A stretch of 64,000 bases of DNA from Polaromonas sp. (lineage in GTDB: Bacteria > Pseudomonadota > Gammaproteobacteria > Burkholderiales > Burkholderiaceae_C), in assembly GCA_043740415.1 (NCBI GenBank), contig JAYUCJ010000152.1:2758-66757 (forward strand). Reading direction: 5' to 3'. The notes under the pieces were generated by a model. The model saw only the letters and a list, made by a program, of their open reading frames with translations, was not told the origin of the DNA and did not search any database. This document shows, piece after piece, positions 15,667 to 64,000 of this stretch. Each line of letters opens with the position of its first letter. Within the stretch, counting starts at the first letter, position 1. The translations under genes were made by a program, and so were the position numbers.

Positions 15667-15676
15667 GCTCTATTAA

Positions 15677-23719: not shown

Positions 23720-24469
23720 ATGCGTCTTCAAATTGCGATTTACTCACTTTTGATCCTAGCTCTTGCCGCTTGCAAGCCTAGCAACGAAATAGTGACAACT
23801 AAGGCTACTACTGAGCTAAAACCCGCGGCTTTGCCTACGGCGCCAATAAAAAAATCGGATTGGGAGAATGCAATAAAGGCGACTTACGAAAAAAGTCAAA
23901 TTAATACTGATAAAGAGGGTGTGACTGAGTTTGTGGCTTGCTTCCAAACCAAAGATGGAAATAAATGTACTGGGTCTGTGTTTGGAAAACACGATGTATT
24001 TCGTCACCTCACAATCTTTACACCAGCAAATTCGGAAAGTGCAGCTCTTGGCATATGGAAGTATCTTCATTCGTATGTATCGCTTATTGATTGCAAGCGT
24101 CCTAGTGTTCTACTATCACCTCATATCTTTTCGAAAGAAGGATGGCTATTTATGGATAAGGTGTCAGTTTTAGCTGACGGTGAATTACTTTTGGAACACA
24201 AATTCACAAGTACTGAGGTTGATCGCGATAACAATACATGGGGAATTGACGAAAGAGCGCATTGGGTAGCGTCAGACAATGATCTTAGCGCGTTAAAGCG
24301 AATTGCCAGTGCCAAAGTAATTATCGTCCGCCTTTCGGGTGCCAAGGGCTACGTCACTGTTGCTGAAAAAGATATTAGCCGCATTAAAGAAGACTTCAAA
24401 AGCGTACTAGCAATATATAGCGTGCTCGATGCCGCCGCAGCTAGTAAAGAACCAGCTGAGTGTATTTGA
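23720..24469 (+). CDS. Hypothetical lipoprotein (AT-rich island)
   Basis: 249 aa. Signal peptide with lipobox LALAAC. No family recognised. Confidence 0.55.
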   Translation: MRLQIAIYSLLILALAACKPSNEIVTTKATTELKPAALPTAPIKKSDWENAIKATYEKSQINTDKEGVTEFVACFQTKDGNKCTGSVFGKHDVFRHLTIFTPANSESAALGIWKYLHSYVSLIDCKRPSVLLSPHIFSKEGWLFMDKVSVLADGELLLEHKFTSTEVDRDNNTWGIDERAHWVASDNDLSALKRIASAKVIIVRLSGAKGYVTVAEKDISRIKEDFKSVLAIYSVLDAAAASKEPAECI

Positions 24470-24650
24470 TTGGTTATCTTCTATAACTCAGAGCTTAATC
24501 TCAATTTTGCTGATCAACCTAGTTCAAACCGCGTAACACTTGGTGGCAGGTTTTTTTTCGCTAGAAATCTTGATACGCGAAAAAAACCTAGAGCGACGAT
24601 TACATTAATCGGTAAAGCTCAGGCTTTCATTTCTTGTGTGAGGTGTATTT

Positions 24651-25667
24651 ATGATTTTTTATAAATATTACAGTTTTAGCTCAGGAATAGCTGCCCTTAG
24701 CAGCCAAAAGCTCGGTTTTCGGGAACCCAAATACTTCAACGACCCATTTGAGCTAAGTTACCTTAACAACTCCAGTGACTCAAATTTTATTGAAGACAAG
24801 ATGAACTCGCTAAAGAAGAGCCTAGTCATACTTTCATTAACTAAAACCTATAGCAACCCATTAATGTGGGCTCATTATGGAGAGGATCATAAGGGTTTCG
24901 TAATTGGTTATGACATTGACGATGATTTTTTTCTTTCTCAAAAATACAACGTTATTACAGCAGCCGAAGGTAAAGTTTCATATACCAATAAGAAAGAAAA
25001 AATCATAATTTCCGAAAAATTAAAAAATGTTTTACACGAAATTTACTTGATAGGAGAAGGCAAGATATCCAGCCACCTTAAATCGAAATTATTATTATCC
25101 ATTTTGAAGAAGGCACTTTTATACAAACACTCGTCATGGGCTTATGAAGAGGAAGTTAGAGTTATCAAAGTCTTAGATTCCAAATTCAAAGAATCTGAGG
25201 AGTGGCAATCCGACCCAAACAGAGCTTTTTCTTCATTTAGCAAATCTGTGGCTCCAGGAATTGAAACGATTTCAATTCCTGGACTTTACTTATTTAACAA
25301 GGAGGTAAAAATTAAAGAAGTCTACCTTGGCATGCGTAATCCTTTATTGAGTCCTCATATTCAAACAAGTGATCCGATTGAAAGTCGTGATATCTACGAA
25401 CAGTCTAAAAAGCATTCGTGGTGCGTAAAAAAAATGTCTATGGCTAGCGGCTCTTGGGAGCTTGAAGGCCATGATATAAATCGTGAACTATTAATGATTC
25501 GAAAGCAGACTAGAGGCCTTATTAGGTCATTGGCTTTTAGCGGCTTAGAGGCTGAGTACCTATGCAGGACTCTTCCGCTAAACTTGGATAGCGTTGAAGA
25601 TAGATATGAATTAACCAACTGGTATGACAGAATCGAGCTTAAAAGAAATGGTGAGTTTGTCACCTAA
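24651..25667 (+). CDS. DUF2971-family protein
   Basis: N-terminus FYKYYSFSS...LGFREPKYFNDPFE and SLTKTYSNPLMWAHYGEDHKGFVIGY are signatures I associate with DUF2971. Confidence 0.7.
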   Translation: MIFYKYYSFSSGIAALSSQKLGFREPKYFNDPFELSYLNNSSDSNFIEDKMNSLKKSLVILSLTKTYSNPLMWAHYGEDHKGFVIGYDIDDDFFLSQKYNVITAAEGKVSYTNKKEKIIISEKLKNVLHEIYLIGEGKISSHLKSKLLLSILKKALLYKHSSWAYEEEVRVIKVLDSKFKESEEWQSDPNRAFSSFSKSVAPGIETISIPGLYLFNKEVKIKEVYLGMRNPLLSPHIQTSDPIESRDIYEQSKKHSWCVKKMSMASGSWELEGHDINRELLMIRKQTRGLIRSLAFSGLEAEYLCRTLPLNLDSVEDRYELTNWYDRIELKRNGEFVT

Positions 25668-25880
25668 AAAGGCCTTAGTTTGTAAATTCTCACTCCGTCA
25701 ACCACCTCCTAGCCTCTTCTCTTTCTACTTAGTAAATAGCGTTTTTTTTGATCACACAAGTTAGCATGTACGTACTGATACTGACACTGACACTGACAAT
25801 AATATAAGTCCCCTTAAAAGTTCTAATCTTTATAAAAAACTACAATTGCTCGATAAGTTTTTAATAACCCAAGGATAATC

Positions 25881-26357
25881 ATGAAAATATTTGCAGGCAT
25901 CGTTGGCGGTCTAATTTTGGCCATCCTCGGAGCAATCTTCTTTACAGTTGGTGGCGCATCAAGCCCTGGACGCGGTAGTGGATTTGGTGCAATCGCATTC
26001 TGTGCATTCTGGATAGTTGGAATAATTGTTGCTGTAAAGGCCCCATCTCCAGCGAAAGCTTGGCGAAGATTACTGATAACATCTGCAATCGCTTCATTTA
26101 TGCTGCCACTAGCAGGAATCATATTTACGAGTTCACAAGTCGCAAATACTATCGAGAAAGGCGGCGAGTACGTTGAAGCAGCAGCAACTGGAGCCGCAAT
26201 TGGTGGAACACTTATCTCTGGTTTTATGGGATTTGTAGGTTTTTTTCTAGGATCAGTATTTCTAATTATTGGGTTACTCGTAGGTCGAGATAAACAGATA
26301 ATCTACATCCAATCGCCTCCGCAAAAACCAGATACTGAACCCGTCAATCACGTCTAA
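25881..26357 (+). CDS. Hypothetical 4-TM membrane protein (island cassette)
   Basis: 158 aa, Gly-rich TM segments. RBS-like aaggataatc lies before the ATG. No family recognised. Confidence 0.5.
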   Translation: MKIFAGIVGGLILAILGAIFFTVGGASSPGRGSGFGAIAFCAFWIVGIIVAVKAPSPAKAWRRLLITSAIASFMLPLAGIIFTSSQVANTIEKGGEYVEAAATGAAIGGTLISGFMGFVGFFLGSVFLIIGLLVGRDKQIIYIQSPPQKPDTEPVNHV

Positions 26358-26361
26358 ACTC

Positions 26362-26394
26362 CTTGATACTTCACGCCGCCTTCTCAATCACCTT
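26362..26394 (+). repeat. Decayed copy of the purC 3'-terminal sequence (copy D)
   Basis: cttgatacttcacgccgccttctcaatcacct, versus the purC end cttgatacttcgccgccgtcttctcaatcacct. Confidence 0.65.
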
Positions 26395-26451
26395 TGATTG
26401 AATACAAGCGCATTGACAAACTTATAAAGTGAACACATAATATGTGCAAAA

Positions 26452-26691
26452 ATGGAGTTTGCAATGAACATCACCTTATCAATCGACGAACGCGTGGCTG
26501 AAAATGCGCGTGAGGCTGCTCGCAAAATGGGGAAAAGCTTGAACCAAGTGGTGCGTGACTATTTGGAGCAATTGGCCGGCACGGCGCATGCTGAGCAAGA
26601 CTTTGATGCGTTTGAACAGCGTTGCTTGAACACCAAAGGACGCTTGAACCATTGGACCTTCAACCGCGAAGAAGCCAATGCCCGCCATTAA
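26452..26691 (+). CDS. Ribbon-helix-helix-type antitoxin (VapB-like)
   Basis: NITLSIDERVAENAREAARKMGKSLNQVVRDYLEQLAG. Overlaps the downstream PIN gene. The start may be at 26464. Confidence 0.7.
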   Translation: MEFAMNITLSIDERVAENAREAARKMGKSLNQVVRDYLEQLAGTAHAEQDFDAFEQRCLNTKGRLNHWTFNREEANARH

Positions 26692-27178
26692 TACAGGCAG
26701 TGCCAAGCCGCCTACCGCGCAAGAAGCAAGCGCAGCGTATTTGGCTATATACCAGCCACTGGCAAAAGAACGCTGCTTCATAGACACCAATTTGCTGATT
26801 TATGCAGACAGTGGGGACGAGCCCGTCAAACAGCGCATCGCCTTGTCTTTGCTTAAGCAGCTTAGACTGAATCAAACAGGCGTGTTGTCAACCCAAGTGC
26901 TGAACGAATACTGCAACGTAGCGCTCAACAAACTGAAGCTACCACATGCCGATATTCGTGAGCAAATGCAATTTTGGGAGCAATACGAAGTTGTCCAAGT
27001 GACCCCAGCCATCATCCACATGGGGCTAGACTTGCACCAAACCCGATCTCTAGGTTTTTTTGACGCGCTGATTGTCGCTGCCGCCAAAACCAGCGGCTGC
27101 ACCGTTCTGTATTCTGAAGATATGAATGCGGGTGAGATGGTGAACGGGGTACGGATTGTGAACCCGTTCAGGCTTTAG
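26678..27178 (+). CDS. PIN-domain toxin (VapC family)
   Basis: CFIDTNLLIYADSGDEP...FFDALIVAAAKTSGCTVLYSEDM. The start codon is uncertain. Confidence 0.75.
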   Translation: MPAINTGSAKPPTAQEASAAYLAIYQPLAKERCFIDTNLLIYADSGDEPVKQRIALSLLKQLRLNQTGVLSTQVLNEYCNVALNKLKLPHADIREQMQFWEQYEVVQVTPAIIHMGLDLHQTRSLGFFDALIVAAAKTSGCTVLYSEDMNAGEMVNGVRIVNPFRL

Positions 27179-53264: not shown

Positions 53265-53534
53265 TTAATCTACCAATTCAGCCAAAGCCTTGGCATAGCG
53301 GTTCGCGTGTGAACGCTCTGCTTTTGCCAAAGTTTCAAACCAATCAGCCACTTCATCATGACCTTCGTCGCGCGCTGTTTTAGCCATGCCAGGGTACATA
53401 TCGGTGTATTCATGGGTTTCGCCAGCGACGGCGGACTTCAAATTGTCACGAGTCGCGCCAAACGGCATGTCTGTGGCAGGGTCGCCGCATTGTTCTAGCC
53501 ACTCTAAGTGGCTGAAAAATCTCTTAAATTGCAA
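53265..53534 (-). pseudogene. Rubrerythrin-family gene, 5'-truncated
   Basis: Retains only HLEWLEQCGDPAT...AGETHEYTDMYPGMAKTARDEGHDEVADWFETLAKAERSHANRY, the second half of the four-helix bundle. The first E...ExxH half is missing. The ORF opens with non-homologous QFKRFFS from a TTG. Confidence 0.7.
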
Positions 53535-53711
53535 CCAATTGAAACGAGTTTACTGTAATACTTAAGATTTCAATTTCATGCATTTACTTATGTCAATGTT
53601 AACTTTCGGGGGGGGTAGCGCAACAAGTACTTACATTTAATTCAGTTTATCTTCAAAAACTGTCTATATTTAACTCTCAATTCAAAAGTGTTCTGAAATT
53701 TTCTGAATTTC

Positions 53712-55193
53712 TTGAGGATGTCAACGCAGATGTTATTTTTTCGCCCCGAAGTCATGCAGTCACAAGCCAGCCAATGGCTAGGCGTTGTACGCTTGCACAG
53801 ACCCTTGTCGTTCGGCTTGATCACTGCAACAGCCATCGGCGTTGCACTTTTGTGCATCACATTTGCAACGTGGGGCGAAGTCAACCGTAAATCACGCATT
53901 TCTGGCTTGCTCGTTTCTTCGTTAGGCAGCCTGAATATAGCCGCACCGCTGGCCGGTGTGTTGGTCGAAAGCCGGATTTCTGAAGGCCAAACCGTACAAG
54001 CGGGTGACGTGCTGTTCGTACTCAACACCGAGCGCCAAAGCACGGCGGGCGACACCAACGCCCTGACTCTGATACACATCGAAGCCCGCAAGCAAACCCT
54101 GAACACCGAGCGCGGCCTGCGCCAGCTGCAAACCAGTCAACGCAGCCAAGTGCTAGAAGACCGCATTCGCACGCTGAATGCCGAGCTATTGCGCCTAGAC
54201 GAAGAGCAAAACCTGCTAGAAAACCGCATCACCCTGTCCAAGAAGACACTTGCACGCAGCCAAAAATTAGCTTCCGAGGGCTTTTTGTCTGAAGCTCAAG
54301 TACAAACCAACCAAGAAGAACTCATAGACCTCAACAGCCGCCAACAAGCCCAAGCCCGCAGCAAACTCAGCACCCAGCGCGACCTACGCACACTCACTGG
54401 CGAAGCCGAAGGTCTAGCCACCCAACTCAAAGCAGATTTAAACCAGCTAGCGCGCAATGTGTCGCAGCTCAACCAAGAAGCCACAGAAACCACCGCCCGC
54501 AAAAGCACCCTCATCACCGCGCCCTACGCTGGCACCATCACCGCCTTTAACCTGCAAAACGGCCAAGCCGTGCAGGCGGGGCAAACCTTGGCGACGTTGG
54601 TGCGTACAGAAACCACATCTCCGATGCTCACCACAGAAAAAGTCAGGTTGAAAATCTCCGGCTACAAGATGACGACGTTACTTTCGACGCCAAAAAATAC
54701 CGTTCGCCCTGAGCCTAACATTCCATCCGTTCGCCCTGAGCCTGTCGAAGGGTTCACCGCCAAAGCAGAGCCACAAGCCCCGCAATCCCTCCAAGCCCAC
54801 CTCTACGCCCCCAGCCGCACCGCCGGCTTCCTCAAACCCGGCCAGTCCGTCTACATGCGCTACGCCGCCTACCCCTACCAAAAGTTCGGCCTACAAACCG
54901 GCCACATCACCGCCATATCCGCCACCCCCTTCTCCGCCAGCGAGCTACCCCCCAACATCGCCCAGCAGCTCATCGCGCAATCTGGCAGCAACGAAGCCCT
55001 CTTTCGCATCAACGTGCGGCTAGACCAGCAAACGATTACCAGCTACGGCGAGCCGCTGCAACTCAAAGCAGGGCTAACGCTAGAGGCCGATGTGCTGCAA
55101 GAACGCAGAAAGATATGGGAATGGGTGCTAGAGCCGCTGCTTGCGGCTAAGGCGCAATTGAAGGTTTTGAACTCGAATCCAAATAAAAATTAA
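53712..55193 (+). CDS. HlyD/CvaA-family membrane-fusion (adaptor) protein for peptide export
   Basis: FRPEVMQSQASQWLGVVRL + TM + lipoyl-like hairpin (ISEGQTVQAGDVLFVL) + long coiled coil + beta-barrel (APYAGTITAFNL..GQAVQAGQTLATLV). Carries an in-frame PAL element. Confidence 0.85.
   Translation: MRMSTQMLFFRPEVMQSQASQWLGVVRLHRPLSFGLITATAIGVALLCITFATWGEVNRKSRISGLLVSSLGSLNIAAPLAGVLVESRISEGQTVQAGDVLFVLNTERQSTAGDTNALTLIHIEARKQTLNTERGLRQLQTSQRSQVLEDRIRTLNAELLRLDEEQNLLENRITLSKKTLARSQKLASEGFLSEAQVQTNQEELIDLNSRQQAQARSKLSTQRDLRTLTGEAEGLATQLKADLNQLARNVSQLNQEATETTARKSTLITAPYAGTITAFNLQNGQAVQAGQTLATLVRTETTSPMLTTEKVRLKISGYKMTTLLSTPKNTVRPEPNIPSVRPEPVEGFTAKAEPQAPQSLQAHLYAPSRTAGFLKPGQSVYMRYAAYPYQKFGLQTGHITAISATPFSASELPPNIAQQLIAQSGSNEALFRINVRLDQQTITSYGEPLQLKAGLTLEADVLQERRKIWEWVLEPLLAAKAQLKVLNSNPNKN
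54700..54755 (+). repeat. PAL-family element (tandem left arms) in frame within hlyD
   Basis: ccgttcgccctgagcctaacattccatccgttcgccctgagcctgtcgaagggttc. Read as ...TVRPEPNIPSVRPEPVEGF... Confidence 0.8.
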
Positions 55194-55200
55194 TAAAAGC

Positions 55201-55698
55201 ATGAAGTATTTTCAAAAAATCCGCACCATCGTATTTTCAACTGAATTGCCTTTATGGAAATATTGCTTTCTGACATTTTGGATCTTTATCAGCGTATCGG
55301 TTATAGCCAATATTTTTATAAAAACATTAGCAGTATTTTTAACTATAAATTATGGACCTGAAGAAATTAAAACTAATTTATCGGTGATTGAATCAGTTGT
55401 TGTTAGCATAATCGTACCGTTTATAGAAACACTCCTTCTTGCGGTGTTTTTAATATTATTTAAAATAATATTAAAAAATAATATGTTTATAGCAATCATC
55501 ATTGCAATAGTTGCCGGATTGACACATTCAAAACAAGATTGGACACATTTTTTTATATACGCGGCTATGTTTTATTTATTTGCACTATTTTATTTAACAA
55601 GGTCAAAAATTTCTTTTGCCAATGGATTTATAGCTGCTTTTGTTCCACATCTGTTAAACAATTCAATGATTGCTCTATTTGCATATTATGATATTTAA
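55201..55698 (+). CDS. CPBP/Abi-like intramembrane protein (putative immunity), paralogue 1
   Basis: 165 aa, about 5 TM. PFIETLLLA (degenerate EExxxR), GLTHS, and FVPHLLNN (HxxxN). Ends ...YYDI like paralogue 2. 7-nt gap after the hlyD stop. Confidence 0.65.
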   Translation: MKYFQKIRTIVFSTELPLWKYCFLTFWIFISVSVIANIFIKTLAVFLTINYGPEEIKTNLSVIESVVVSIIVPFIETLLLAVFLILFKIILKNNMFIAIIIAIVAGLTHSKQDWTHFFIYAAMFYLFALFYLTRSKISFANGFIAAFVPHLLNNSMIALFAYYDI

Positions 55699-55773
55699 AT
55701 CTAAATTATAAATTCTGTTTTTACGCATTTGGCAGTAAATTTTTTATAAATGCGGTATTTAGAAAGAGTAGTT

Positions 55774-56031
55774 ATGAAAGAATTATCGATTGAAGATTTA
55801 GCAGAAGTCGCCGGTGGAGGAGCATTGACCACAGCTGGGAAATGGATGCTAAACCAACTTGCTGGCTGGGGATTTACGGAAGCAGTTGTCGAAGGCGTTA
55901 AATATGTAATGGACAATGAGGGCGGCTGGTTTACTCCTGGCGCTGCCAACGACGGTGGCGGTTCGTCTCCGTACGTTTGCGATGCTAACGGCTACTGCTA
56001 TACCAATAATCAGTATAGCTGCTCTGCATAA
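55774..56031 (+). CDS. Double-glycine-leader peptide 1 (class II microcin/bacteriocin-like precursor)
   Basis: 85 aa. The 15-aa leader MKELSIEDLAEVAGG is spaced like the ColV leader MRTLTLNELDSVSGG. About 70-aa Gly/Trp-rich core ending PYVCDANGYCYTNNQYSCSA. RBS-like aaagag upstream. Confidence 0.75.
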   Translation: MKELSIEDLAEVAGGGALTTAGKWMLNQLAGWGFTEAVVEGVKYVMDNEGGWFTPGAANDGGGSSPYVCDANGYCYTNNQYSCSA

Positions 56032-56051
56032 TAAATTTGCTTAAATAAAAA

Positions 56052-56075
56052 TCCAAAGATGTGCACATCTTTGGA
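56052..56075 (+). terminator. Perfect 12-bp-arm hairpin after the peptide 1 gene (no T-tract)
   Basis: tccaaagatgtg/cacatctttgga, 20 nt after the stop codon. Confidence 0.35.
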
Positions 56076-56099
56076 TAATACAACTTTAATATTACCAAT

Positions 56100-56327
56100 A
56101 TGCATAGAATGATTAGTGGAGTACTGTCGTTTATTAGAAGCAGTCAAACATCACCGTACAATACTTCTAATGCTATACAAACGGCAGTCTTACAGGCATA
56201 CGCAGCGCGCGTGAAACTAAGCAATGATACACATGGCGATACCGCACTACACATCAATCAACATATTCACAAACCAGCTCTCTCTGAAAACAGTGACTGC
56301 AAGCGCTTATGGCAGCAATATAGTTGA
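56100..56327 (+). CDS. Hypothetical 75-aa ORF
   Basis: Open frame in an AT-rich region. No motif, no TM, no obvious RBS. Confidence 0.25.
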   Translation: MHRMISGVLSFIRSSQTSPYNTSNAIQTAVLQAYAARVKLSNDTHGDTALHINQHIHKPALSENSDCKRLWQQYS

Positions 56328-56382
56328 AAAACCTTGTGAGATAATATTGAATGAGCTTTTTAAGCATGCAAATATGTCCATG

Positions 56383-56426
56383 GCTAACATATTATTTGCC
56401 TGAGCAGCTATTTTAATAATAGCAAT
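56383..56426 (+). repeat. Degenerate R45 copy
   Basis: gctaacatattatttgcctgagcagctattttaataatagcaat. Confidence 0.55.
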
Positions 56427-56465
56427 ATACTAAAACAAGTACACATTAAATATTCTAAAATTACT

Positions 56466-57386
56466 ATGCGAATTTTAAATTTTTTATACATTACTTCTGC
56501 ATTAACGGTATTGGTTGGTTGTGTATCACCCATACAAACACCAGAAGAGGTTAGTAGAAATAATGACTTATTAGCTACTCAGATATTGCAATCAAAAAGC
56601 AAGAGCAGTCAAACTATACAAAATAAATCTCTCGATAATACTCCAACCATACAAAGGGTATCAGGTATTTACTTTGGATTAGCACTCGATGGTGTATCGC
56701 CAGCTTTTGAGGGTGATATTAAGCGAGTACAAAATTTATTTTTTGACGAAATTGCTAAGGGTCCTAGCTTGCTACTCAGCAATTCCGAAACAAATGAACA
56801 AATATACCCACGTGCGGATTTCAGAACCATCCCAGAGGCAGCAAAGGCTGTAGGGAATTACCGTGTTGAGCCCGATATCGGGTTAACAACACCGGGCCTA
56901 AAAGTGGTAGTTGTTTCATCACACGGCAGAGAAAAGCACTTGCGACTACGTGTAGGAAAAAATCGGATCCAAGGCGAAGTAAGTGATGCTTACCTCTTGA
57001 AACTACTTGCTGATATTGATGGCTCAAGCAAAACTCCTACGCTGTTGATTATTTCAGCCTGCCACTCGGGCTCTTTTATTCCACTTCTTGCTGCGCCCAA
57101 TAGAATTATCATGACGGCAGCAGCCAGTGATAAATTATCATTTGGCTGTGGCACAGATTCTAAAAATACGGCATTTACTGAACACTTACTAGATCAAAAC
57201 ATTGACACGAAATTATCATTGCACAATCTTTTTGATAGTGCTTTAAAACGTATTTCCGATTTTGAAATAAAAATGAAAATCGCAACCTCATCACCACAAA
57301 TATCTGTGGGTGCAAATATGCAGAGATTGTATGAAGCACGCATTGAAGAGTGGGATAAAATTTTAACCAAAGAAAGAAAAGATTAA
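56466..57386 (+). CDS. Lipoprotein, clan-CD cysteine peptidase (C13/legumain-like family)
   Basis: Lipobox LTVLVGC. His-Gly ... Ala-Cys dyad context VVVVSSHG...LLIISACHSGSFIPLL, followed by IMTAAASDKLSFGC as in bacterial C13-family proteins. Confidence 0.65.
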   Translation: MRILNFLYITSALTVLVGCVSPIQTPEEVSRNNDLLATQILQSKSKSSQTIQNKSLDNTPTIQRVSGIYFGLALDGVSPAFEGDIKRVQNLFFDEIAKGPSLLLSNSETNEQIYPRADFRTIPEAAKAVGNYRVEPDIGLTTPGLKVVVVSSHGREKHLRLRVGKNRIQGEVSDAYLLKLLADIDGSSKTPTLLIISACHSGSFIPLLAAPNRIIMTAAASDKLSFGCGTDSKNTAFTEHLLDQNIDTKLSLHNLFDSALKRISDFEIKMKIATSSPQISVGANMQRLYEARIEEWDKILTKERKD

Positions 57387-57396
57387 ATACAAATAG

Positions 57397-57645
57397 TTAA
57401 TTCCAAATTACTGTCCTATAAATGGCGGCAATACTCAATACCGAAATATACCAACCCCTGTCATTGCATCAATAGCGCAAGTATCCGCAAGAGCCCGAAA
57501 CGTGATGCCTAGTAATGATGCTAACGGTGATACCGCGCCATACTGCAACCAATACTCTCACAAAGCAGTTGCGTCTAAAAACGGTGACCGCAACGGTTTA
57601 GGTCAGCAATACAGTTGGGGAACTTGGTGGGATGATACGAATTGA
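57397..57645 (+). pseudogene. Start-less paralogue of GG-leader peptide 2
   Basis: The frame opens right after a TAG: LIPNYCPINGG-NTQYRNIPTPVIASIAQVSARARNVMPSNDANGDTAPYCNQYSHKAVASKNGDRNGLGQQYSWGTWWDDTN. The core is homologous to 58371-58631, but there is no ATG/GTG/TTG or RBS before the GG. Confidence 0.6.
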
Positions 57646-57668
57646 GTTTTTATGTGCATAAATGTGCC

Positions 57669-57714
57669 ACTAGCCGGCGTATTTATTGCCTAGACAGCTA
57701 TATTATTTATAGCA
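57669..57714 (+). repeat. R45 repeat, 24 nt after the peptide-2 paralogue
   Basis: actagccggcgtatttattgcctagacagctatattatttatagca. Confidence 0.85.
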
Positions 57715-57742
57715 AAAATTTCATCTAATATCAAATAAAAAC

Positions 57743-58237
57743 ATGCAGAGTATCGCAAAAATTTACGGTTTTTTAATTTCTAACAAAATTTCATTCCCAA
57801 AATATATCGGCATTGTATTTTTAATAGAATTATTGTCAGCCATATTTCTTGCTTTACTTGTTTTTGTTTTCATTGACATCTTTGATTTAAATTACGCCGC
57901 ATTTCCTGAGCACGATTTATCTTGGGGAACATTTTGGAAGGGAGTCGTTTTTGCACCTACTCTTGAAACCTATTTATTGATTTTAACTTTGCATATTTTG
58001 CGAAGTTTCGACATTCAAGGTTTAAAACTTGCAAGTATTGCTGCCATATTCTGGGGCGCATTACATGGGGTTCAAAGTTGGCCTTGGTTTTTTGCACCTG
58101 CATGGATATTTTTCATCTATTCAACGGCTTACGAAACATGGCGTTTGACATCTTTTAAGAAAGCTTATTTTGCCGCTGCTATTCCGCATGCTCTGAATAA
58201 TTTGGTAGCCCTGTTCGCTAATAGCTACGACATCTAA
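57743..58237 (+). CDS. CPBP/Abi-like intramembrane protein (putative immunity), paralogue 2
   Basis: 164 aa. PTLETYLLI, GALHGV, IPHALNN. Ends ...SYDI. The stop TAA overlaps an ATG (TAATG) that begins a relic of the ABC gene. Confidence 0.65.
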   Translation: MQSIAKIYGFLISNKISFPKYIGIVFLIELLSAIFLALLVFVFIDIFDLNYAAFPEHDLSWGTFWKGVVFAPTLETYLLILTLHILRSFDIQGLKLASIAAIFWGALHGVQSWPWFFAPAWIFFIYSTAYETWRLTSFKKAYFAAAIPHALNNLVALFANSYDI

Positions 58238-58313
58238 TGCGCGTCATCATTCAATCCGAAGCCAGCGAATGCGCGCTGGCTAGTTTGGCTATGGTTTGCA
58301 GTGCGCATGGGCT
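58237..58313 (+). pseudogene. 77-nt duplicate of the 5' end of the C39-ABC exporter gene
   Basis: atgcgcgtcatcattcaatccgaagccagcgaatgcgcgctggctagtttggctatggtttgcagtgcgcatgggct is identical to 59649-59725 except for one base. Homology stops abruptly afterwards. Confidence 0.85.
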
Positions 58314-58370
58314 ATCAGTCAATAAGAGAGTTTTTAAGAAAATAATCTTTATTAATCAAAGGAGGATTTT

Positions 58371-58631
58371 ATGGAGCAACTTAATAAATCAACATTGTCA
58401 TTAATATTGGGGGGCAATAACGTCCCGGGAAAAGTGCCGGCAGCTGTACTCGCATCAATGACGCAAGTATCCAGTAGAGTAAGTGATACATTACGGATTA
58501 TGAATACGCATGACGATGCCGCGCCATACTGCAATCAATATTTACACGTGGCTATTGCTCCAAAAAACGGTGACCGCAACGCCTTGGGGCAGCAATATAG
58601 CTGGGGCACTTGGTGGGATGATACACATTGA
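58371..58631 (+). CDS. Double-glycine-leader peptide 2 (class II microcin/bacteriocin-like precursor)
   Basis: 86 aa. Strong RBS aaaggagg 7 nt upstream. The 15-aa leader MEQLNKSTLSLILGG has hydrophobic residues at -4, -7 and -12. Core ends GQQYSWGTWWDDTH. Confidence 0.75.
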   Translation: MEQLNKSTLSLILGGNNVPGKVPAAVLASMTQVSSRVSDTLRIMNTHDDAAPYCNQYLHVAIAPKNGDRNALGQQYSWGTWWDDTH

Positions 58632-58654
58632 GTTTTTAGAGGCAAGAATATACC

Positions 58655-58700
58655 GTTAGCCGACGTATTTATTGCCTAATATGCTATGAACTTTAATTAT
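58655..58700 (+). repeat. R45 repeat (3' half diverged), 24 nt after peptide 2
   Basis: gttagccgacgtatttattgcctaatatgctatgaactttaattat. Confidence 0.65.
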
Positions 58701-58797
58701 TTTATTTTGTGATGTCACATATTTTTCCACTTGCATTAGCCGCGTAACGATGGTAAATTACTGTCATTAAACACAGTAGTCAACCAAGGTAATTCAC

Positions 58798-59649
58798 ATG
58801 AAAATTCTTCCAACCGATTTCGATGGTCAATCTATCCGCCGCGTGTATGACGAGGACACTGAAATGTGGTGGTTTTCTGTGGTGGACGTGGTGCAGGTGC
58901 TGACGCAGCAGGCTGATGACTTGACGGCTCGCAAGTACTGGAATCAGCTGAAACGCAGGCTTGAGAATGAAGGCAGCCAACTGGTGACAGACTGTCACCA
59001 GTTGAAAATGACAGCGGCAGATGGCAAACAACGCTTAACAGATGCTGCAAGCGCCGAAACTTTGCTGCGTCTCGTTCAATCCGTCCCCAGCCCCAAAGCT
59101 GAACCCATCAAACTGTGGCTAGCTAAAACTGGCTATGAGCGTATGCAAGAAATGGCAGACCCTGCGCTGTCTTTGAATCGTGCCCGCGAAACGTGGGAGC
59201 AACATGGGCGTAGCGACAAATGGATTCAGCAACGGATGACGGGACAGGAAACCCGCAACAAATTGACTGACTATTGGCGTGAGCACGATGTCAAACCTGG
59301 TCAAGAGTTTGCTATTTTGACCAATATCATCCACCAAGCTTGGACAGGCGTAAGCGTCAAAGAGCACAAAACTGCTAAGAATCTGACTAGCCATAACCTG
59401 CGCGACCACATGACTGAAGCAGAGCTTATTTTTACAGCTCTGGCTGAGCTATCTACGCGGCAGATTGCAGAGAACCGCCATGCAACGGGTTTACCCGAAA
59501 ATGCCACGGCCGCCAAAGTGGGTGGCAGTATTGCACGCCAAGCACGTCAGCAGCTAGAAAGCGAAACGAGCAAATCAGTGGTGACTAGCAGCAACTACTT
59601 GCCGCCAAAGAATACTAAGCTTCTCAAGCCCCAAAAACCGTCACCTTAA
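58798..59649 (+). CDS. Bro-N domain protein (DinD / phage antirepressor-like)
   Basis: FDGQSIRRVYDEDTEMWWFSVVDVVQVLT is a Bro-N signature. 283 aa. The stop overlaps the ABC start (TAATG). Confidence 0.7.
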   Translation: MKILPTDFDGQSIRRVYDEDTEMWWFSVVDVVQVLTQQADDLTARKYWNQLKRRLENEGSQLVTDCHQLKMTAADGKQRLTDAASAETLLRLVQSVPSPKAEPIKLWLAKTGYERMQEMADPALSLNRARETWEQHGRSDKWIQQRMTGQETRNKLTDYWREHDVKPGQEFAILTNIIHQAWTGVSVKEHKTAKNLTSHNLRDHMTEAELIFTALAELSTRQIAENRHATGLPENATAAKVGGSIARQARQQLESETSKSVVTSSNYLPPKNTKLLKPQKPSP

Positions 59650-61763
59650 TGCGCATCATCATTCAATCCGAAGCCAGCGAATGCGCGCTGGCTAGTTTGG
59701 CTATGGTTTGCAGTGCGCATGGGCTGCAGGTGGATTTGGCGGATTTGCGGCGGCGGTTTGTGGTGTCTATCAAGGGCGCTACCATGCAGCAGCTGGTGCA
59801 GCATGCGGATGGGCTGAACTTTAGCTCACGCCCGCTGCGGTTGGAGCTGGATGAGCTTAGCCAGCTTCAACGGCCCTGCATTTTGCACTGGGGGCTGAAC
59901 CATTTTGTGGTGTTGGTCAAGGTGCGTAAGAACCACATCGTGATTTACGACCCTGCGGTGGGTGAGCGGCGGGTGGTGATGGAAGATGTGTCGCGGCACT
60001 TCACGGGTATTGCGCTGGAATTAACGCCGAATGCCAGTTTTGAGCCTAGCGACCAGCGACAGCGGGTGTCGCTTGCGGCGCTGACTGGTAAGGTGCTAGG
60101 GCTGAAGCGTTCGATGTTTCAGATATTTGCATTGGCCATGGTGTTGCAGCTTTTTGCCATTGCCGCACCGCTGTTGAACCAGCTGGTGGTGGACGATGCG
60201 ATTGCGACGTATGACAAAGATTTACTCTCGGTGCTGATTGTTGGTTTTGCCTTGCTGATGTTGATTCAGACTTTGCTGGGCTTGGCGCGTAGCTGGATGG
60301 TGATGGCGCTGAGCATGTCGCTTAGCCTGCAGTGGACGAGCAATGTGTTTAGCCACCTGCTGAAGCTGCCGATTGAGTATTTTGAAAAACGGCATTTGGG
60401 CGATGTGGTGTCGCGCTTTGGGTCTGTCAATACGATTCAAAAAACGCTGACAAGCAGCTTGATTGAAGCGGTGCTGGACGGGTTGATGAGCGTTGCCGCA
60501 CTGGGCATGATGCTGCTATATTCGCCGCTTTTGGCCGCCGTGGTAGTGGGCGCGGTAGTTATCTATGCGCTTTTACGCTGGGCGATGTACAAACCTTTTC
60601 GTGATGCGAGTGCGGAGCGTTTAGTGGTAGCTGCTAAAGAGAATACGCATTTTCTAGAGTCGCTTCGCGCCATCACGCCGCTGAAACTCTTTGGGCGTGA
60701 AAACGAGCGCCGCGCACGCTGGCAAAACCTGCTGATTGATGTACAAAACCGCGACATCAAAACCGCCAAAATGGGCATCGCGTTCAGCACGGCAAACACG
60801 TTTATTTCTGGCATTGAAAACTTGGTGGTACTTTGGTTGGGGGCAGGTTTGGCAATGCAAAGCTCGCCACAAGGACAAAGCAGCTTCACCATTGGTATGC
60901 TGTTTGCCTTCATCAGCTACAAAGGGCAGTTTTCTAGCCGCATGGCGACCTTGATTAACTACTTTGTTGAAATCAAAATGCTGGGCTTGCATGCAGAGCG
61001 TTTGGCAGATATTGCGCTGACTGAGCCTGAAAAAGACGCCGTACCTGACAACACGTTGCAGCATCTTGAACCCAAAATTGAACTCAAAAACGTAAGTTTT
61101 CGCTACGGGGAAGGTGAGCCTTGGCTACTGAAAGAAACCAACGTGGTGCTCAACGCCGGGGAAAGCGTGGCGATTGTGGGGGTGAGTGGCTGCGGTAAGA
61201 CGACTTTGTTGAAGCTTATTTTGGGTTTGCAGCAAGTGGTGGAAGGGGAAATTTTGTACGGTGGCATCCCCGTCAAACAACTGGGATTACAAAATTACCG
61301 CAAATTGATTGGTACGGTGATGCAAGAAGATGTTTTACTGGCTGGCAGCATTGCAGAAAATATCAGCTTTTTTGATGTTCACTTTGACATGGAGCGGGTG
61401 CAAACATGTGGTCAACTCGCGGCAGTGCACGACGACATTGCGCGTATGCCTATGGGCTACCAAACTTTGGTGGGGGATATGGGTTCTGCTTTGTCGGGCG
61501 GGCAAAAACAACGTGTTTTGCTAGCCCGCGCTTTGTACAAACAGCCGAAAGTGCTGGCTTTGGATGAAGCGACCAGCCATTTAGACATCACCAATGAGAG
61601 ACGAGTGACACAAACTTTGACGCAAATGAGCTTGACCCGCATCATTGTGGCGCACAGGCCCGAGACGATTGCTGCGGCGCAGCGGGTGATTGCTTTAGAG
61701 AATGGAAAAATAATTGAGTTGCGACCGGCAGCAGCGTTTGAGAGCTTACAAGAAGCGGCATAA
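59649..61763 (+). CDS. Peptidase-C39-domain ABC transporter (PCAT, CvaB-like bacteriocin/microcin exporter)
   Basis: N-terminal C39 domain QSEASECALASLAMVCSAHG (catalytic Cys) ...HFVVL. 6-TM domain. Walker A GVSGCGKTT, signature LSGGQKQR, Walker B VLALDEATSHLD. Confidence 0.9.
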   Translation: MRIIIQSEASECALASLAMVCSAHGLQVDLADLRRRFVVSIKGATMQQLVQHADGLNFSSRPLRLELDELSQLQRPCILHWGLNHFVVLVKVRKNHIVIYDPAVGERRVVMEDVSRHFTGIALELTPNASFEPSDQRQRVSLAALTGKVLGLKRSMFQIFALAMVLQLFAIAAPLLNQLVVDDAIATYDKDLLSVLIVGFALLMLIQTLLGLARSWMVMALSMSLSLQWTSNVFSHLLKLPIEYFEKRHLGDVVSRFGSVNTIQKTLTSSLIEAVLDGLMSVAALGMMLLYSPLLAAVVVGAVVIYALLRWAMYKPFRDASAERLVVAAKENTHFLESLRAITPLKLFGRENERRARWQNLLIDVQNRDIKTAKMGIAFSTANTFISGIENLVVLWLGAGLAMQSSPQGQSSFTIGMLFAFISYKGQFSSRMATLINYFVEIKMLGLHAERLADIALTEPEKDAVPDNTLQHLEPKIELKNVSFRYGEGEPWLLKETNVVLNAGESVAIVGVSGCGKTTLLKLILGLQQVVEGEILYGGIPVKQLGLQNYRKLIGTVMQEDVLLAGSIAENISFFDVHFDMERVQTCGQLAAVHDDIARMPMGYQTLVGDMGSALSGGQKQRVLLARALYKQPKVLALDEATSHLDITNERRVTQTLTQMSLTRIIVAHRPETIAAAQRVIALENGKIIELRPAAAFESLQEAA

Positions 61764-61767
61764 AAAA

Positions 61768-62147
61768 TGTGAAGCTCGCCGATACGCCGGATTTTGTGCG
61801 GCACAACCCGAAAGCTGCGCCGTGACCGTCATTCATCTTGGCCTTGGGTCACCCCAAGGCTCGGTGCTACCTACCCGCCATCTCTCTTAGCGAACCGCCA
61901 AGTGAGACGATTCGGCGAACCTAGTCACCTCTGGATGGCCTATTTGGTATTGCTGCGCGTAGAGATTGCCCGTTTCACCCGCTATGAGTTTCCCCATAGC
62001 GACTCGTCTCTGTTGCTCTGATCCTCACCTTATATCTTTCGACTTTCAGTGGGCAGCCGTTAGCTGCTACGCTGTCCTATGCAGTCCGGACGTTCCTCCA
62101 GTGCTTGGTTTCCCAAATTGCACCAGCGACGGCCTAGCGAGCTTCAC
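61768..62147 (-). ncRNA. rnpB: RNase P RNA, bacterial type A
   Basis: The reverse complement reads GAAGCTCGCTAGG...GGAGGAACGTCCGGACTGCATAGGACAG...CAGAGCAACAGAGAC...GGTGAAACGG...CAAATAGGCC...AGATGAATGACGGTCAC...ACAAAATCCGGCGTATCGGCGAGCTTCAC. This matches the P1/P4 and universally conserved blocks of E. coli M1 RNA. Confidence 0.9.
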
Positions 62148-62159: not shown

Positions 62160-62206
62160 CCACGCCAAATCCAGTCCATCGTAACTCGTCTTCAGATATC
62201 CACTGC

Positions 62207-62239
62207 TTAGCCATTACTTAGCCATTACTTAGCCATTAC
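62207..62239. repeat. 3 x 11-bp perfect tandem repeat (ttagccattac)
   Basis: ttagccattac repeated three times. Overlaps the stop codon of the dehydrogenase gene. Confidence 0.9.
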
Positions 62240-63537
62240 TTTCCACTCACTCGCCAAATCCTGTTGCCAACATCATCCGCAACCAACAGCGCACCTTGTT
62301 TGTCGATAGCAACACCGACGGGGCGGCCGAGCGCCTTGCCATCGTCACTCAAGAATCCTGTTAAAACGTCAACGGGTAACCCTTTGGGTTTGCCATTTTC
62401 AAAAGGTACAAATATCACTTTATAACCGCTGTGCGGTCGTCTATTCCAGGAACCATGTTGACCAATAAACATGCCCTGCGAGAAGATTGCAGGCAGTTTG
62501 CTACCGGTTGAAAACGCCAGCCCTAGCGATGCAGTATGTGACCCTAAGGCATAGTCCGGTACCAGTGCTTCTGCCACCATCGCAGGCTGTTGCGGTTGAA
62601 CCCTCTGATCAACATGTTGGCCGAAATAACTATACGGCCAACCATAAAAACCACCACTTATGACCGATGTCAGGTAGTCCGGCACCAAATCACTGCCGAG
62701 TTCATCACGTTCATTCACCACCGTCCATAAAGCGCCACTTGTGGGCTCCCATGCCATGCCGTTCGGGTTGCGCAAGCCGGATGCAAACAGTCGATGTGCG
62801 CCGGATTTGATATCGACCTCCCAAATGGCGGCACGCTCAAACTCCGCCTCCATGCCACTTTCGGCGATATTGCTGTTTGAACCTACGGTCACATACAGCT
62901 TGCTGGCATCAGTGCTGGCGATGATGTTTTTGGTCCAATGGTGGTTTATGGGGCCTGCAGGCAAATCCAATAATTTTCTGCCTGCCACTTTGATCTGCGT
63001 ATCACCCGTGGTGTAAGGGAAGCGCAACACCGCATCGGTGTTGGCAACATAAAGTTCGTTGCCAACCAAAGCGATGCCGAAGGGTGAATTCAAGCCGCTC
63101 AAAAACACGGATCGAACATCAGCCACGCCATCGCCATTGGTGTCGCGCAACAAGGTGATGCGGTTCGGGCTTGGAACAGCAGCCCCTGCCACAGACATCA
63201 CCAGCCCGATGACCCAAGACTTGATACCCTTGTTGGCTTGTGCTTTTGGGGGTGCATTAGATTCAGCCACAAGGACATCACCATTTGGCAACACATACAG
63301 CCAACGCGGATGTTCGAGATCAGCTGCAAATGCACCAACGCTGGTGCCTGCTGCCGTGAGTGGCTGAAGACCTGTATTCCAACCTTTGGCAGGTGCGATG
63401 TTCACCGTTGGAATTAGCGACTTACTCGGAGGCGGCAAAGCTGGTTGCGGGCCATAACCCGCTTCAATCGGCAGCTTAGCCAAATCACTGCAAGCGGCAA
63501 GCAAAAATAGCAAGATTCCCATAACGAAGTTCAACAT
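62236..63537 (-). CDS. PQQ-dependent sugar (sorbosone/glucose) dehydrogenase-family protein
   Basis: Signal/lipobox LLFLLAAC. Beta-propeller motifs [12 protein letters not shown]...NERDELG.DLVPDY...GGFYGWPY. Confidence 0.75.
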
Positions 63538-63777: not shown

Positions 63778-64000
63778 TTATTTTGGTGGTGGTGTTTCGG
63801 CTGGCACAACGATAACTGCGGTTCCGCCGCCTGCACCAGTTTTACCTGTATCGCCTTGGCTGCCCGTAGCACCAGTAGCACCAGTATTGCCTGTGCTTCC
63901 CGTGTTGCCACCTGCCCCTTGGCCACCGGTTGCACCCTGTGGACCAGCTGGTCCAGGCACAGCGACTGGCGTCGCAGGAACAATGACTGTGGGTCTGTCG
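63778..64000 (-). CDS. Collagen-like Gly-X-Y repeat protein (partial; continues beyond the window)
   Basis: ...PGPAGPQGATGGQGAGGNTGSTGNTGATGATGSQGDTGKTGAGG, then TAVIVVPAETPPPK stop. The frame stays open to the window edge. Confidence 0.5.
   Translation of the reverse strand, partial: DRPTVIVPATPVAVPGPAGPQGATGGQGAGGNTGSTGNTGATGATGSQGDTGKTGAGGGTAVIVVPAETPPPK

Follow-up and report, generated by a model that had tools for sequence, protein, structure and literature searches.

The stretch between a rubrerythrin gene and rnpB in the window (the whole 64,000 nucleotides of DNA analyzed, from an uncultured stream bacterium) is probably a chromosomal, strain-variable, multipeptide locus for bacteriocins of the class II microcin type, with an immunity logic of the Abi/CPBP type. 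The export of microcin-like peptide toxins is already a well-known kind of weapon and not a new kind. A PCAT and an HlyD protein with double-glycine (GG)-leader substrates represent the export logic of class II microcins and bacteriocins (CvaAB-ColV), and this logic was upheld here by HMM matches and leader sequences (Table 1). An ORF check of the window recovered every ORF named in the original prediction in its place. HMM searches supported the assignments to HlyD, C39/ABC, Peptidase_C13, and Bro-N; the CPBP pair failed individually and was supported as a family consensus. Four peptide genes were present, two intact (peptides 1 and 2) and two pseudogenes, a status that had been overlooked.

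Table 1. Features of the locus in the window, with strand and basis of assignment
Feature	Coordinates	Strand	Basis
HlyD-family periplasmic adaptor (membrane fusion protein)	53712..55193	+	Pfam HlyD_3 57 bits, Biotin_lipoyl_2, HlyD_D23
Mini-CPBP membrane protein 1 (CPBP1), 165 aa	55201..55698	+	Rce1-like 18.8 bits, cut-off 22.4
Peptide 1 precursor, 85 aa	55774..56031	+	Sequence: 15-aa double-glycine leader MKELSIEDLAEVAGG, 70-aa mature part
Decayed peptide-2 copy A: 75-aa ORF (56100-56327) plus conserved 3' element	56100..56410	+	Aligned at the DNA level to copy B and intact peptide 2
Peptidase C13 lipoprotein (legumain-like, clan CD), 306 aa	56466..57386	+	Pfam C13 38 bits, cut-off 22.8
Peptide-2 copy B, pseudogene	57387..57645	+	Start ATG to ATA; 2-nt deletion in leader
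Mini-CPBP protein 2 (CPBP2), 164 aa	57743..58237	+	No individual Pfam match; family-level tests
Relic of PCAT 5' end, left direct repeat of cassette	58235..58313	+	99% identical to 59647-59725
Peptide 2 precursor, intact, 86 aa	58371..58631	+	Sequence: 15-aa GG leader MEQLNKSTLSLILGG
Bro-N domain protein, 283 aa	58798..59649	+	Pfam Bro-N 34.6 bits, cut-off 25.6
PCAT (peptidase-containing ABC transporter) with C39, transmembrane, and ATPase domains	59649..61763	+	Pfam ABC_membrane 140 bits, Peptidase_C39 114 bits, ABC_tran 108 bits
rnpB, RNase P RNA gene	61767..62145	-	Rfam RF00010, 200 bits

The locus occupies a fixed chromosomal site in glacier-stream Comamonadaceae, the group of the related strains, with the order rubrerythrin, hlyD … PCAT, rnpB. 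Since hlyD and PCAT shared this site in all related strains and variation was confined to the cargo between them, the region, which had been described as an 8.2-kb peptide-export island, is not an inserted island. The GC content was 36 to 37% at 55 to 58 kb (cargo), compared with 49 to 58% in the flanks (about 52%). The locus is bounded on the right by the core gene rnpB, which lies on the opposite strand, 3 nt past the PCAT stop codon. The true start of hlyD is likely a few codons downstream of the annotated ORF start. The adaptor also gave below-cut-off matches to TIGR01843 and TIGR03794, and orthologues were found at the same site in loci L082 to L110. Its linker contained a REP-like repeat coding for SVRPEPVEG. 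In the C39 domain of PCAT, Q6, C12, and H85 were read from the sequence. No gene of the locus was identifiable as a regulator or as TolC.

When the gene neighborhood of the exporter was compared among relatives, the site proved to be conserved and the pairing of peptides with CPBP genes recurrent. Many metagenome strains carried different cargo at the same chromosomal site. For example, L081 was 99.2% identical to the window across PCAT and downstream, yet it had other cargo. L082 was 96% identical over 57508-58313, which takes in the 3' end of peptide 2b, CPBP2, and the relic of the PCAT start, but only 81% identical in hlyD and 89% in PCAT. In the relatives L002 to L004, the order was hlyD, cargo, PCAT. 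This comparison showed that strains swap cargo by homologous recombination, which is anchored in the PCAT 5' end and in two conserved 3' segments, one at the end of hlyD and one in the peptide-2 genes.

The predicted relic of the exporter gene start was borne out as a 79-nt direct repeat, whose right copy (59647-59725) includes the first 77 nt of PCAT. Judged by these repeats, intact peptide 2 and Bro-N form a cassette between two copies of the PCAT start. An identical relic breakpoint was found in eight loci (L094 to L101), with differing upstream genes and three CPBP2 alleles upstream. Bro-N travels with peptide 2 (linked in eight loci) and, by its full-length match to phrog_15286 (E = 3.6e-89), belongs to a mobile-element family; copies about 50% identical were found on plasmids of many phyla. 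The Bro-N gene had a host-like GC content. No small membrane ORF was found between intact peptide 2 and Bro-N. The gene that follows intact peptide 2 encodes this cytoplasmic-type protein.

As predicted, the two cargo peptides had no detectable similarity to each other in sequence comparison and differed from known microcins, as neither matched Pfam or NCBIfam bacteriocin families beyond weak leader-only matches. Mature peptide 1 ends in YSCSA; its homologues kept the leader and a VEGVKYVMDxEG core, and 1.84 billion proteins yielded just 4 representatives. Mature peptide 2 has the C-terminus PKNGDRNALGQQYSWGTWWDDTH, and the C-terminal motif was invariant in its family (16 clusters, every one metagenomic). 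Peptide 2 is hydrophilic and its structure prediction gave no confident fold (pLDDT 50); thus, no killing mechanism can be proposed. In copy A, the GG site was gone, the invariant PKNGDRN was altered, and TGG had become TGA after QQYS. Its position was filled by intact peptide 2 in L089 and L102. The 75-aa ORF of this copy was present as predicted, but its nature as a third, dead peptide-2 copy had been missed. In copy B, which had been recognized as a start-less paralogue (57397-57645), the lost start codon and the leader deletion identified a pseudogene; the mature part was still open, and the nearest intact relative, P0067, had a normal leader.

CPBP1, 7 nt downstream of hlyD, and CPBP2 are paralogues (32% identity, E = 4e-14). 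Their assignment to the CPBP proteins held for the family and not for each protein alone, both of which fell under the Pfam cut-off. The consensus of 34 family members scored 25.4 bits against the Rce1-like family (cut-off, 22.4), and 21 of the 34 matched that family only. The Rce1-type E/H/H..N residues were conserved in the family (E76, H109, H150, and N154 of CPBP1 are invariant). CPBP1 and CPBP2 deviate from the canonical EExxxR motif in lacking its second Glu and its Arg. The AF2 model of CPBP2 was an all-helical membrane bundle (pLDDT 91); in a structure search, Rce1 (4cad) was not among the significant matches (rank 19, TMq 0.39, E = 9).

A 164-aa CPBP followed peptide 2 in the window, L081-84, L106/107, L108/109, and L110/111, and a 163- to 165-aa CPBP adjoined peptide-1-type peptides in the window, L082-84, L089, L104, and L110. 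This upheld across strains the proposal that every peptide family has its own CPBP-type partner. Abi-type immunity is a known logic of Gram-positive class II bacteriocin loci. Linkage suggests CPBP1 as a candidate immunity gene for peptide 1 and CPBP2 as a candidate for peptide-2-type peptides, an "orphan" in the window beside dead copy B. The window's CPBP2 was 100% identical to a protein in L082-84, where it is preceded by intact peptide 2. Such proteins had not been recognized as described in proteobacterial microcin loci. However, CaaX/CPBP proteases have been mentioned previously beside proteobacterial PCAT/HlyD bacteriocin clusters (PMC5380434), so that the element is uncharacterized rather than unheard of.

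By homology, the C39 domain of PCAT would cleave the peptide 1 and peptide 2 precursors after Gly-Gly, and the 70- to 71-residue products would exit via the PCAT-HlyD channel together with an outer-membrane component whose gene lies outside the locus. Gene linkage suggests that the peptides act on sister strains without matching protection genes, and protection would most likely come from the small Rce1-like CPBP/Abi membrane proteins beside each peptide family. In the window, intact protection-type genes (CPBP2 and the C13 lipoprotein) stand beside two dead peptide-2 copies, the pattern that might be expected of "orphan immunity" against neighbors' peptides.

The class IIa microcin systems of Enterobacteria (MccV: CvaA-CvaB-CvaC-Cvi) and, more broadly, class II microcins from Gram-negative bacteria (PMC12219008) have in common with this locus a C39 PCAT, an HlyD-type adaptor, small precursors with a double-glycine leader of about 15 residues, adjoining membrane-protein partners, and an outer-membrane partner encoded elsewhere. 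In contrast, the window has its cargo between hlyD and PCAT, several peptide families with no relationship to known microcins, Rce1-like mini-CPBPs instead of small Cvi-type proteins, and an embedded C13 lipoprotein and Bro-N gene. The locus also resembles a Gram-negative version of two hypervariable Gram-positive regions for bacteriocins and immunity, the blp locus of Streptococcus pneumoniae and the pln loci of Lactobacillus plantarum. These likewise combine many GG-leader peptides, CPBP/Abi-type partners, a content that is mosaic among strains, immunity genes that persist where the toxin is missing, and conserved transporter genes. Unlike these, the locus has a Gram-negative host, an HlyD adaptor, no pheromone or two-component regulator, and unusually small CPBPs (about 164 aa) with a single Glu in motif 1.

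The C13-like lipoprotein assignment was confirmed by the Pfam score and by a catalytic dyad (H153-G154 and A198-C199) that was invariant in 23 homologues. The protein shares this match and dyad with the legumains (asparaginyl endopeptidases of clan CD), from which it differs as a short bacterial lipoprotein. It has the lipobox LVGC and is predicted to be catalytically intact and lipid anchored outside the cytoplasm. No solved-structure relative was detectable by sequence, and no paper combining peptidase C13, bacteriocin, and lipoprotein was found in the full-text literature. A locus-linked clade (52 to 82% identity; L089, L102/103, and L104) recurred exclusively in the company of peptide-1-type and peptide-2 genes; one of its genes lay directly upstream of a PCAT on a plasmid-like contig with Rep3 and ParA genes. 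Remoter homologues (about 40% identity) had housekeeping-looking contexts.

The role of this lipoprotein is the weakest step of the mechanism. As a member of the module CPBP1-peptide 1-peptide 2-C13, it probably acts on a module peptide, which it may destroy on entry (immunity) or trim (maturation). That it is a maturation enzyme and not an immunity factor, with Asx-specific trimming or even transpeptidation of the exported peptides, seems unlikely. The invariant dyad and the restriction of C13 to loci with YSC-ending peptides agree with this role, and candidate sites are offered by conserved Asx near both C-termini, namely, WWDD-(T/M)-(H/N) in peptide 2 and Y-x-[D/N]-[T/N]-x-[Y/F]-S-C in the peptide-1 type. 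However, one-step export through PCAT, HlyD, and the outer membrane would skip the periplasm, where the lipoprotein is expected, most peptide-2 loci lack C13 (L081-88 and L095-111), and the window's C13 is intact beside a dead peptide-2 copy.

It is quite unlikely that the window's copy is a decaying, nonworking graveyard of relics. Half of its peptide genes are pseudogenes, and the exporter relic, the mobile-element Bro-N, and the REP-like repeat in hlyD would also fit decay. Nevertheless, hlyD, PCAT, both CPBPs, C13, peptide 1, and peptide 2 have full-length ORFs, the REP-like segment keeps the reading frame and is shared by all strains, and an identical architecture was recovered from another sample (L094).

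CPBP and TraB_PrgY_gumN proteins are both tied to peptide-pheromone handling in Firmicutes (MroQ and PrgY/TraB), and TraB/GumN genes adjoined GG peptides in L003, L085-88, and L106. Even so, signaling peptides, processed or damped by these proteins, are a very improbable reading. No sensor kinase or response regulator was present in the window's locus or any sister locus read, and the cargo turnover, the many unrelated peptide families per locus, the dead peptide genes beside intact partners, and the 70-residue products fit antagonism better.

Caulobacter Cdz (CdzAB-CdzC/D-CdzI) is likewise a proteobacterial PCAT and HlyD system that exports GG-leader toxins, with CaaX proteases near the clusters and the neighboring one dispensable for killing (PMC5380434). 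Contact-dependent action of this kind, with toxins that aggregate and stay on the cell surface instead of diffusing as microcins do, is the least probable reading. Between hlyD and PCAT, the more distant relatives L002 and L003 do have GG peptides that are rich in glycine, glycine-zipper-like, and similar to CdzC/D (PMC5380434), but neither peptide 1 nor peptide 2 is a glycine-zipper protein. L003 also contained an hlyD 3' relic.

All of the features listed in the original prediction were found where it had placed them (see the table); the locus is real and its description was correct. The exporter, called there as a C39-peptidase ABC protein, was matched by the Pfam models Peptidase_C39 (113.7 bits), ABC_membrane (140.3 bits), and ABC_tran (107.9 bits), and Q6, C12, and H85 of its C39 domain can be read from the sequence. 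Among NCBIfam models, this peptidase-containing ABC transporter (PCAT) was closest to the NHLP and bacteriocin cleavage/export ABC families, under their equivalog cut-offs. The HlyD adaptor expected in the same locus matched HlyD_3 (56.8 bits), Biotin_lipoyl_2 (50.8 bits), and HlyD_D23 (48 bits). In its variable linker (54700-54760), a REP-like short repeat, GTTCGCCCTGAGCCTGTCGAAGGG, lies in frame and codes for SVRPEPVEG; this repeat was found in every strain examined, and more REP-like copies occur in the window at 4206-4268, 5201-5228, and 20792-20821. A TolC-type outer-membrane gene was not found at 50-64 kb of the window, and promoter and terminator scans gave match counts not above those of shuffled sequence.

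Features of the locus and of related loci (window positions unless a relative's locus is named)
Feature	Position	Strand	Remarks
hlyD	53712-55193
CPBP-like 1 (CPBP1)	55201-55698
Peptide 1	55774-56031
75-aa ORF (copy A)	56100-56327
Conserved segment 3' of a peptide-2 stop	56330-56410
C13-like lipoprotein	56466-57386		lipobox LVGC
Start-less peptide-2 paralogue (copy B)	57397-57645
Conserved segment 3' of a peptide-2 stop	57646-57720
CPBP-like 2 (CPBP2)	57743-58237
Exporter-start relic	58235-58313
Peptide 2	58371-58631
Conserved segment 3' of a peptide-2 stop	58632-58700
Bro-N	58798-59649
PCAT	59649-61763
rnpB, bacterial class A RNase P RNA	61767-62145	-	200 bits; 3 nt past PCAT stop codon
GGTD-motif membrane protein	L095:3543-3851
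GGTD-motif membrane protein	L106:5619-6268
GGTD-motif membrane protein	L108:7501-7830
GGTD-motif membrane protein	L110:2654-2929

The region had been described as an island, and this part of the prediction did not hold. Many sister strains were found by exact-protein look-up in stream metagenome assemblies (ENA records BUSI22-1 and ERZ2731xxxx). They share one chromosomal site, in which an ornithine/lysine decarboxylase gene and, further right, a rubrerythrin gene precede hlyD, and PCAT is followed by rnpB and a glucose/sorbosone dehydrogenase gene; the cargo between hlyD and PCAT varies from strain to strain. A similar locus occupies a second site, between LeuS-LptE and ExbD-ExbB-DapB. Since the site of hlyD and PCAT does not change from strain to strain, the cargo varies, and no tRNA or tmRNA integration site lies near the locus (only rnpB does), an integrated island was rejected in favor of a fixed locus with a hypervariable core. 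Its right border is marked by rnpB. The GC content is 36-37% at 55-58 kb, against 49-58% for the flanks, hlyD, and PCAT. To the left, the rubrerythrin gene (53265-53534, minus strand) encodes 89 aa with a TTG start in the window and 140 aa in the sister strains L085 and L106, to which similarity ends about 180 nt ahead of hlyD; its 5' end seems to have been clipped by the left edge of the variable region.

The window's PCAT shares 95% identity with that of the Comamonadaceae MAG L001 and 61-67% with the exporters of Roseateles and further Burkholderiales. The closer relatives (L002-L004) carry 1.6-6 kb of cargo between hlyD and PCAT, consisting of a glycine-rich GG peptide and small membrane proteins in L002 and of two GG peptides, TraB/GumN-type genes, and an hlyD 3'-end relic in L003; in more distant relatives, hlyD directly abuts PCAT. 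Nucleotide identity among strains is mosaic. One strain (L081) matches the window at 99.2% over PCAT and the sequence beyond it but has different cargo, and another (L082) is 96% identical over the 3' end of peptide-2 copy B, CPBP2, and the PCAT 5' relic (57508-58313), compared with 81% for hlyD and 89% for PCAT. In one strain, PCAT is split into two ORFs of 504 and 190 aa (L108:9763-11853), which suggests an inactivated exporter and possibly a "cheater" that keeps its immunity genes.

The two small precursors predicted to carry double-glycine leaders do carry them: the leaders, MKELSIEDLAEVAGG and MEQLNKSTLSLILGG, are conserved among homologues, and the NCBIfam model bacteriocin_sig gave 14.4 bits on peptide 1 (cut-off, 15.7). 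DNA alignment with the other two peptide-2 copies identified the 75-aa ORF as a third, dead copy (copy A), with mutations in both the GG site and the otherwise invariant motif PKNGDRN and a TGG codon turned into TGA after QQYS. The ORF had thus been correctly called, but its nature as a decayed peptide-2 gene was missed. Copy B, rightly said to lack a start, differs from the intact gene by an ATG-to-ATA change and also by a 2-nt deletion in the leader; it is a pseudogene whose mature part is still open, and its nearest relative elsewhere, the protein P0067, has a normal leader. The window thus contains two live peptide genes (peptides 1 and 2) and two dead ones, with all partner genes intact. 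About 60 nt 3' of the peptide-2 stop, including a TTGCCT box, is conserved in all three copies. The breakpoints of the mosaic between strains lie within this element or close to it, and it could be the promoter of the downstream gene or a recombination anchor.

Both peptide families are small and environmental. That of peptide 2 has 16 clusters, and a JGI metagenome scan with its alignment returned one short locus only (L105); an exhaustive representative search of 1.84 billion proteins yielded four representatives of peptide 1. AlphaFold prediction of peptide 2 on a 17-sequence alignment gave a pLDDT of 50 and no fold. The C-terminus of peptide 2 consists of an invariant WWDD followed by two residues, and every locus with a C13 gene has a peptide-1-type peptide terminating in Y-x-[D/N]-[T/N]-x-[Y/F]-S-C-x-x. 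Repeated glycine-zipper (GxxxG) motifs are absent from mature peptides 1 and 2.

Peptide 2 and its neighbor Bro-N form a cassette. The exporter-start relic ahead of them, originally given as 77 nt, is a 79-nt direct repeat that is 99% identical to 59647-59725. Eight further loci carry the pair, with an identical peptide 2 protein and a Bro-N that is >99% identical, behind three different CPBP2 alleles and at both chromosomal sites. In every locus with upstream sequence, a PCAT 5' relic with the same breakpoint (after ...GCGCATGGGCT and before ATCAGTCAATAAG) precedes the pair, and its polymorphisms vary among strains with different upstream cargo. Because the two genes co-occur behind a relic with the same breakpoint and next to differing upstream alleles, the unit is a cassette between 79-nt direct repeats of its target gene's start, a structure that fits gain and loss by homologous recombination. 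In loci without the cassette (L081-84 and L001), the CPBP2 gene ends directly at the PCAT start. The Bro-N assignment was borne out by Pfam (34.6 bits; cut-off, 25.6), and the protein matches the mobile-element family phrog_15286 over its full length (E = 3.6e-89). Plasmids from many phyla carry copies about 50% identical to it. The GC content of the gene is host-like, and a search against PDB sequences gave nothing meaningful. Bro-N is regarded as a hitch-hiker or a possible regulator. No small membrane (immunity) ORF was found between peptide 2 and Bro-N.

Immunity genes of class II microcins are usually termed just "small membrane proteins." Here, the peptides of all loci together fall into six or more unrelated GG-leader families, which differ in their membrane-protein partners, and the pairing of peptides with CPBP-type proteins, first proposed for the window, recurs. 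In L081, L082-84, L106/107, L108/109, and L110/111, a 164-aa CPBP protein is encoded after peptide 2, as it is after the dead copy B of the window, and this CPBP gene lies directly upstream of PCAT in every peptide-2-linked locus but the window, where the cassette intervenes. Peptide-1-type peptides adjoin a CPBP protein of 163-165 aa in the window, L082-84, L089, L104, and L110. CPBP2 of the window is 100% identical to the protein that stands 3' of an intact peptide 2 in L082-84; therefore, the window keeps, as an orphan, the partner gene of a peptide that it no longer makes. Such linkage and retention beside a dead peptide gene make the CPBP proteins candidates for immunity to the adjoining bacteriocins. 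Genes of other kinds were also seen in these positions. TraB/PrgY/GumN-family (Tiki-like) genes lie directly 3' of GG-leader peptides in L085-L088, L106/107, and L003, and an AAA_21/ABC-type ATPase gene is immediately upstream of PCAT in L085-88 and L108/109, which suggests that both are further partner types of the locus family. Membrane proteins of about 91-109 aa with the C-terminal motif GGTD(P/T)(A/S)W(F/L)WF..(E/D)PPG(L/F)E recur beside some other GG peptides and are candidates for another immunity family.

The CPBP assignment itself found support at the family level, with weaker scores for the single proteins. CPBP1 scored 18.8 bits against the Rce1-like family (PF02517), under the Pfam gathering cut-off of 22.4, and CPBP2 had no Pfam match. 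The two are paralogues (32% identity, E = 4e-14), and a profile search retrieved 36 clusters of this small family, all metagenomic and none with a precomputed Pfam domain. The HMM consensus of a 34-sequence alignment, however, exceeded the cut-off (25.4 bits, E = 1.7e-5, profile positions 4-92 of 93), and 21 of the 34 members match Rce1-like and no other family (E ≤ 0.01). Their conserved motifs are P-x-x-E-T, G-x-x-H, and H-x-x-x-N, comprising one Glu, two His, and one Asn, for which the reference CPBP/Abi motifs are EExxxR, FxxxH, and HxxxN/D; in the first motif, neither the second Glu nor the Arg of canonical EExxxR is present. In one alignment (A4), E75, T76, and H108 never vary and H149 and N153 hardly do, and the matching residues are all invariant in another (A3). 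The spacings, 33 residues from E to H and 4 from H to N, match those of the Rce1 catalytic residues (E140/H173 and H227/N231). An AF2 model of CPBP2 (pLDDT, 91.4) is a helical membrane bundle with no significant Foldseek match in the PDB; Rce1 (4cad) had the top TMq (0.39) and the top identity (22%) of the Foldseek list, yet an E value of 9 and the 19th rank. The alignment profile had no match among PDB sequences. Because the consensus, the member matches, and the motifs support the family while the single scores and Foldseek stay weak, CPBP1 and CPBP2 are best labeled divergent mini-CPBP proteins, a membership supported at the family level and not proven per protein.

The C13 lipoprotein recurs in this locus family, and no bacteriocin model has a place for such a legumain-like protein. 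The proposed clan-CD His-Gly...Ala-Cys dyad stood up well: the protein scored 38 bits against Peptidase_C13 (cut-off, 22.8), and H153, G154, A198, and C199 are invariant in 23 homologues. A sequence search of the PDB detected no structurally solved relative. Close homologues (52-82% identity) are confined to loci of this kind, with the gene orders CPBP1-peptide 1-peptide 2-C13-PCAT in L089 (on a contig with Rep3, ParA, and an integrase), membrane protein-peptide-1-type peptide-peptide 2-C13 in L102/103, and hlyD 3' end-CPBP1-peptide 1-C13-peptide 2 in L104. Because distant homologues (about 40% identity) occupy unrelated contexts in Rhodoferax-like genomes (FGE-sulfatase-C13-CstA), the locus-linked clade looks to have been recruited from a chromosomal family. 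Enzymes of this type are expected to be specific for Asx, cleaving after Asn/Asp, and an Asx is present near the C-terminus of both peptide-1-type peptides and peptide 2. We lean towards a role in immunity, by degradation of incoming peptide, because a peptide that leaves in a single export step should not encounter a lipoprotein and because the intact gene has been retained beside a dead peptide copy. Maturation, in which C13 would trim the exported product, is a speculative alternative. In a full-text literature search, no paper was found that combines the terms "peptidase C13," "bacteriocin," and "lipoprotein."

Taken with the population variation, the linkage of peptides to partner genes suggests antibacterial peptides with cognate immunity genes, and the best explanation is a hypervariable locus for double-glycine bacteriocins in which the CPBP proteins are immunity candidates of a protease type. 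By analogy with CvaAB/MccV-type systems, the leaders would be cleaved after GG and the peptides exported via PCAT-HlyD and an outer-membrane channel. Sister strains would then be antagonized and CPBP carriers protected, as in the Abi-type immunity of Gram-positive bacteria; any part played by C13 is speculative. A more daring and rather improbable reading is that immunity is proteolytic, with three unrelated kinds of envelope protease (mini-CPBP intramembrane metalloproteases, the C13 lipoprotein, and the TraB/GumN proteins of sister strains), each recruited near particular GG peptides, destroying peptide that re-enters the envelope. In that case, the C13 clade would give legumain-type enzymes their first role in the immunity to bacteriocins or in their maturation. 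Bolder still, C13 might be an Asx-specific transpeptidase acting on the conserved ...WWDD-T-H tail.

In its way of working, the locus would resemble class II microcin systems, and at the population level it resembles the pneumococcal blp and L. plantarum pln loci. It differs from the Cdz glycine-zipper bacteriocins, as its mature peptides are without GxxxG repeats and glycine-rich peptides occur in distant relatives only (L002 and L003). A Caulobacter locus (L036) considered as a Cdz system has a different GG peptide, so no Cdz orthology is claimed. The wide spread of class II microcins in Gram-negative bacteria was only recently recognized (PMC12219008); the terms "CAAX," "CPBP," "Burkholder...," and "Betaproteobacteria" are absent from the main text of that paper. 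CaaX proteases near such clusters were noted in the Caulobacter Cdz paper, where one was dispensable for killing (PMC5380434). The present locus adds two peptide families that are new and restricted to Comamonadaceae of cold streams, and its natural strain variation is evidence that, in a Gram-negative host, specific peptides are paired with mini-CPBP proteins. The mechanism of cargo exchange is visible as cassettes between repeats of the exporter's own 5' end, and a blp-like "arms-race" population structure is found in an uncultured environmental biofilm organism. The system is tractable and could be used to study the working of Abi/CPBP immunity and to ask if microcin immunity is generally attained through proteases.

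Some further sequence features were noted outside the variable core. Between rnpB and the dehydrogenase gene, at 62197-62240, an 11-nt sequence, TAGCCATTACT, is tandemly repeated in 3-4 copies. A small ORF at 63778-63960 (minus strand) encodes collagen-like Gly-X-Y repeats (GPAGPQGATGGQGAGGNTG...), and its orthologue in L106 has a Pfam Collagen match. Low-GC stretches elsewhere in the window, at 15001-16000 (43%) and 23001-27000 (38-47%) versus about 55%, suggest that it has further regions that vary or were acquired horizontally.
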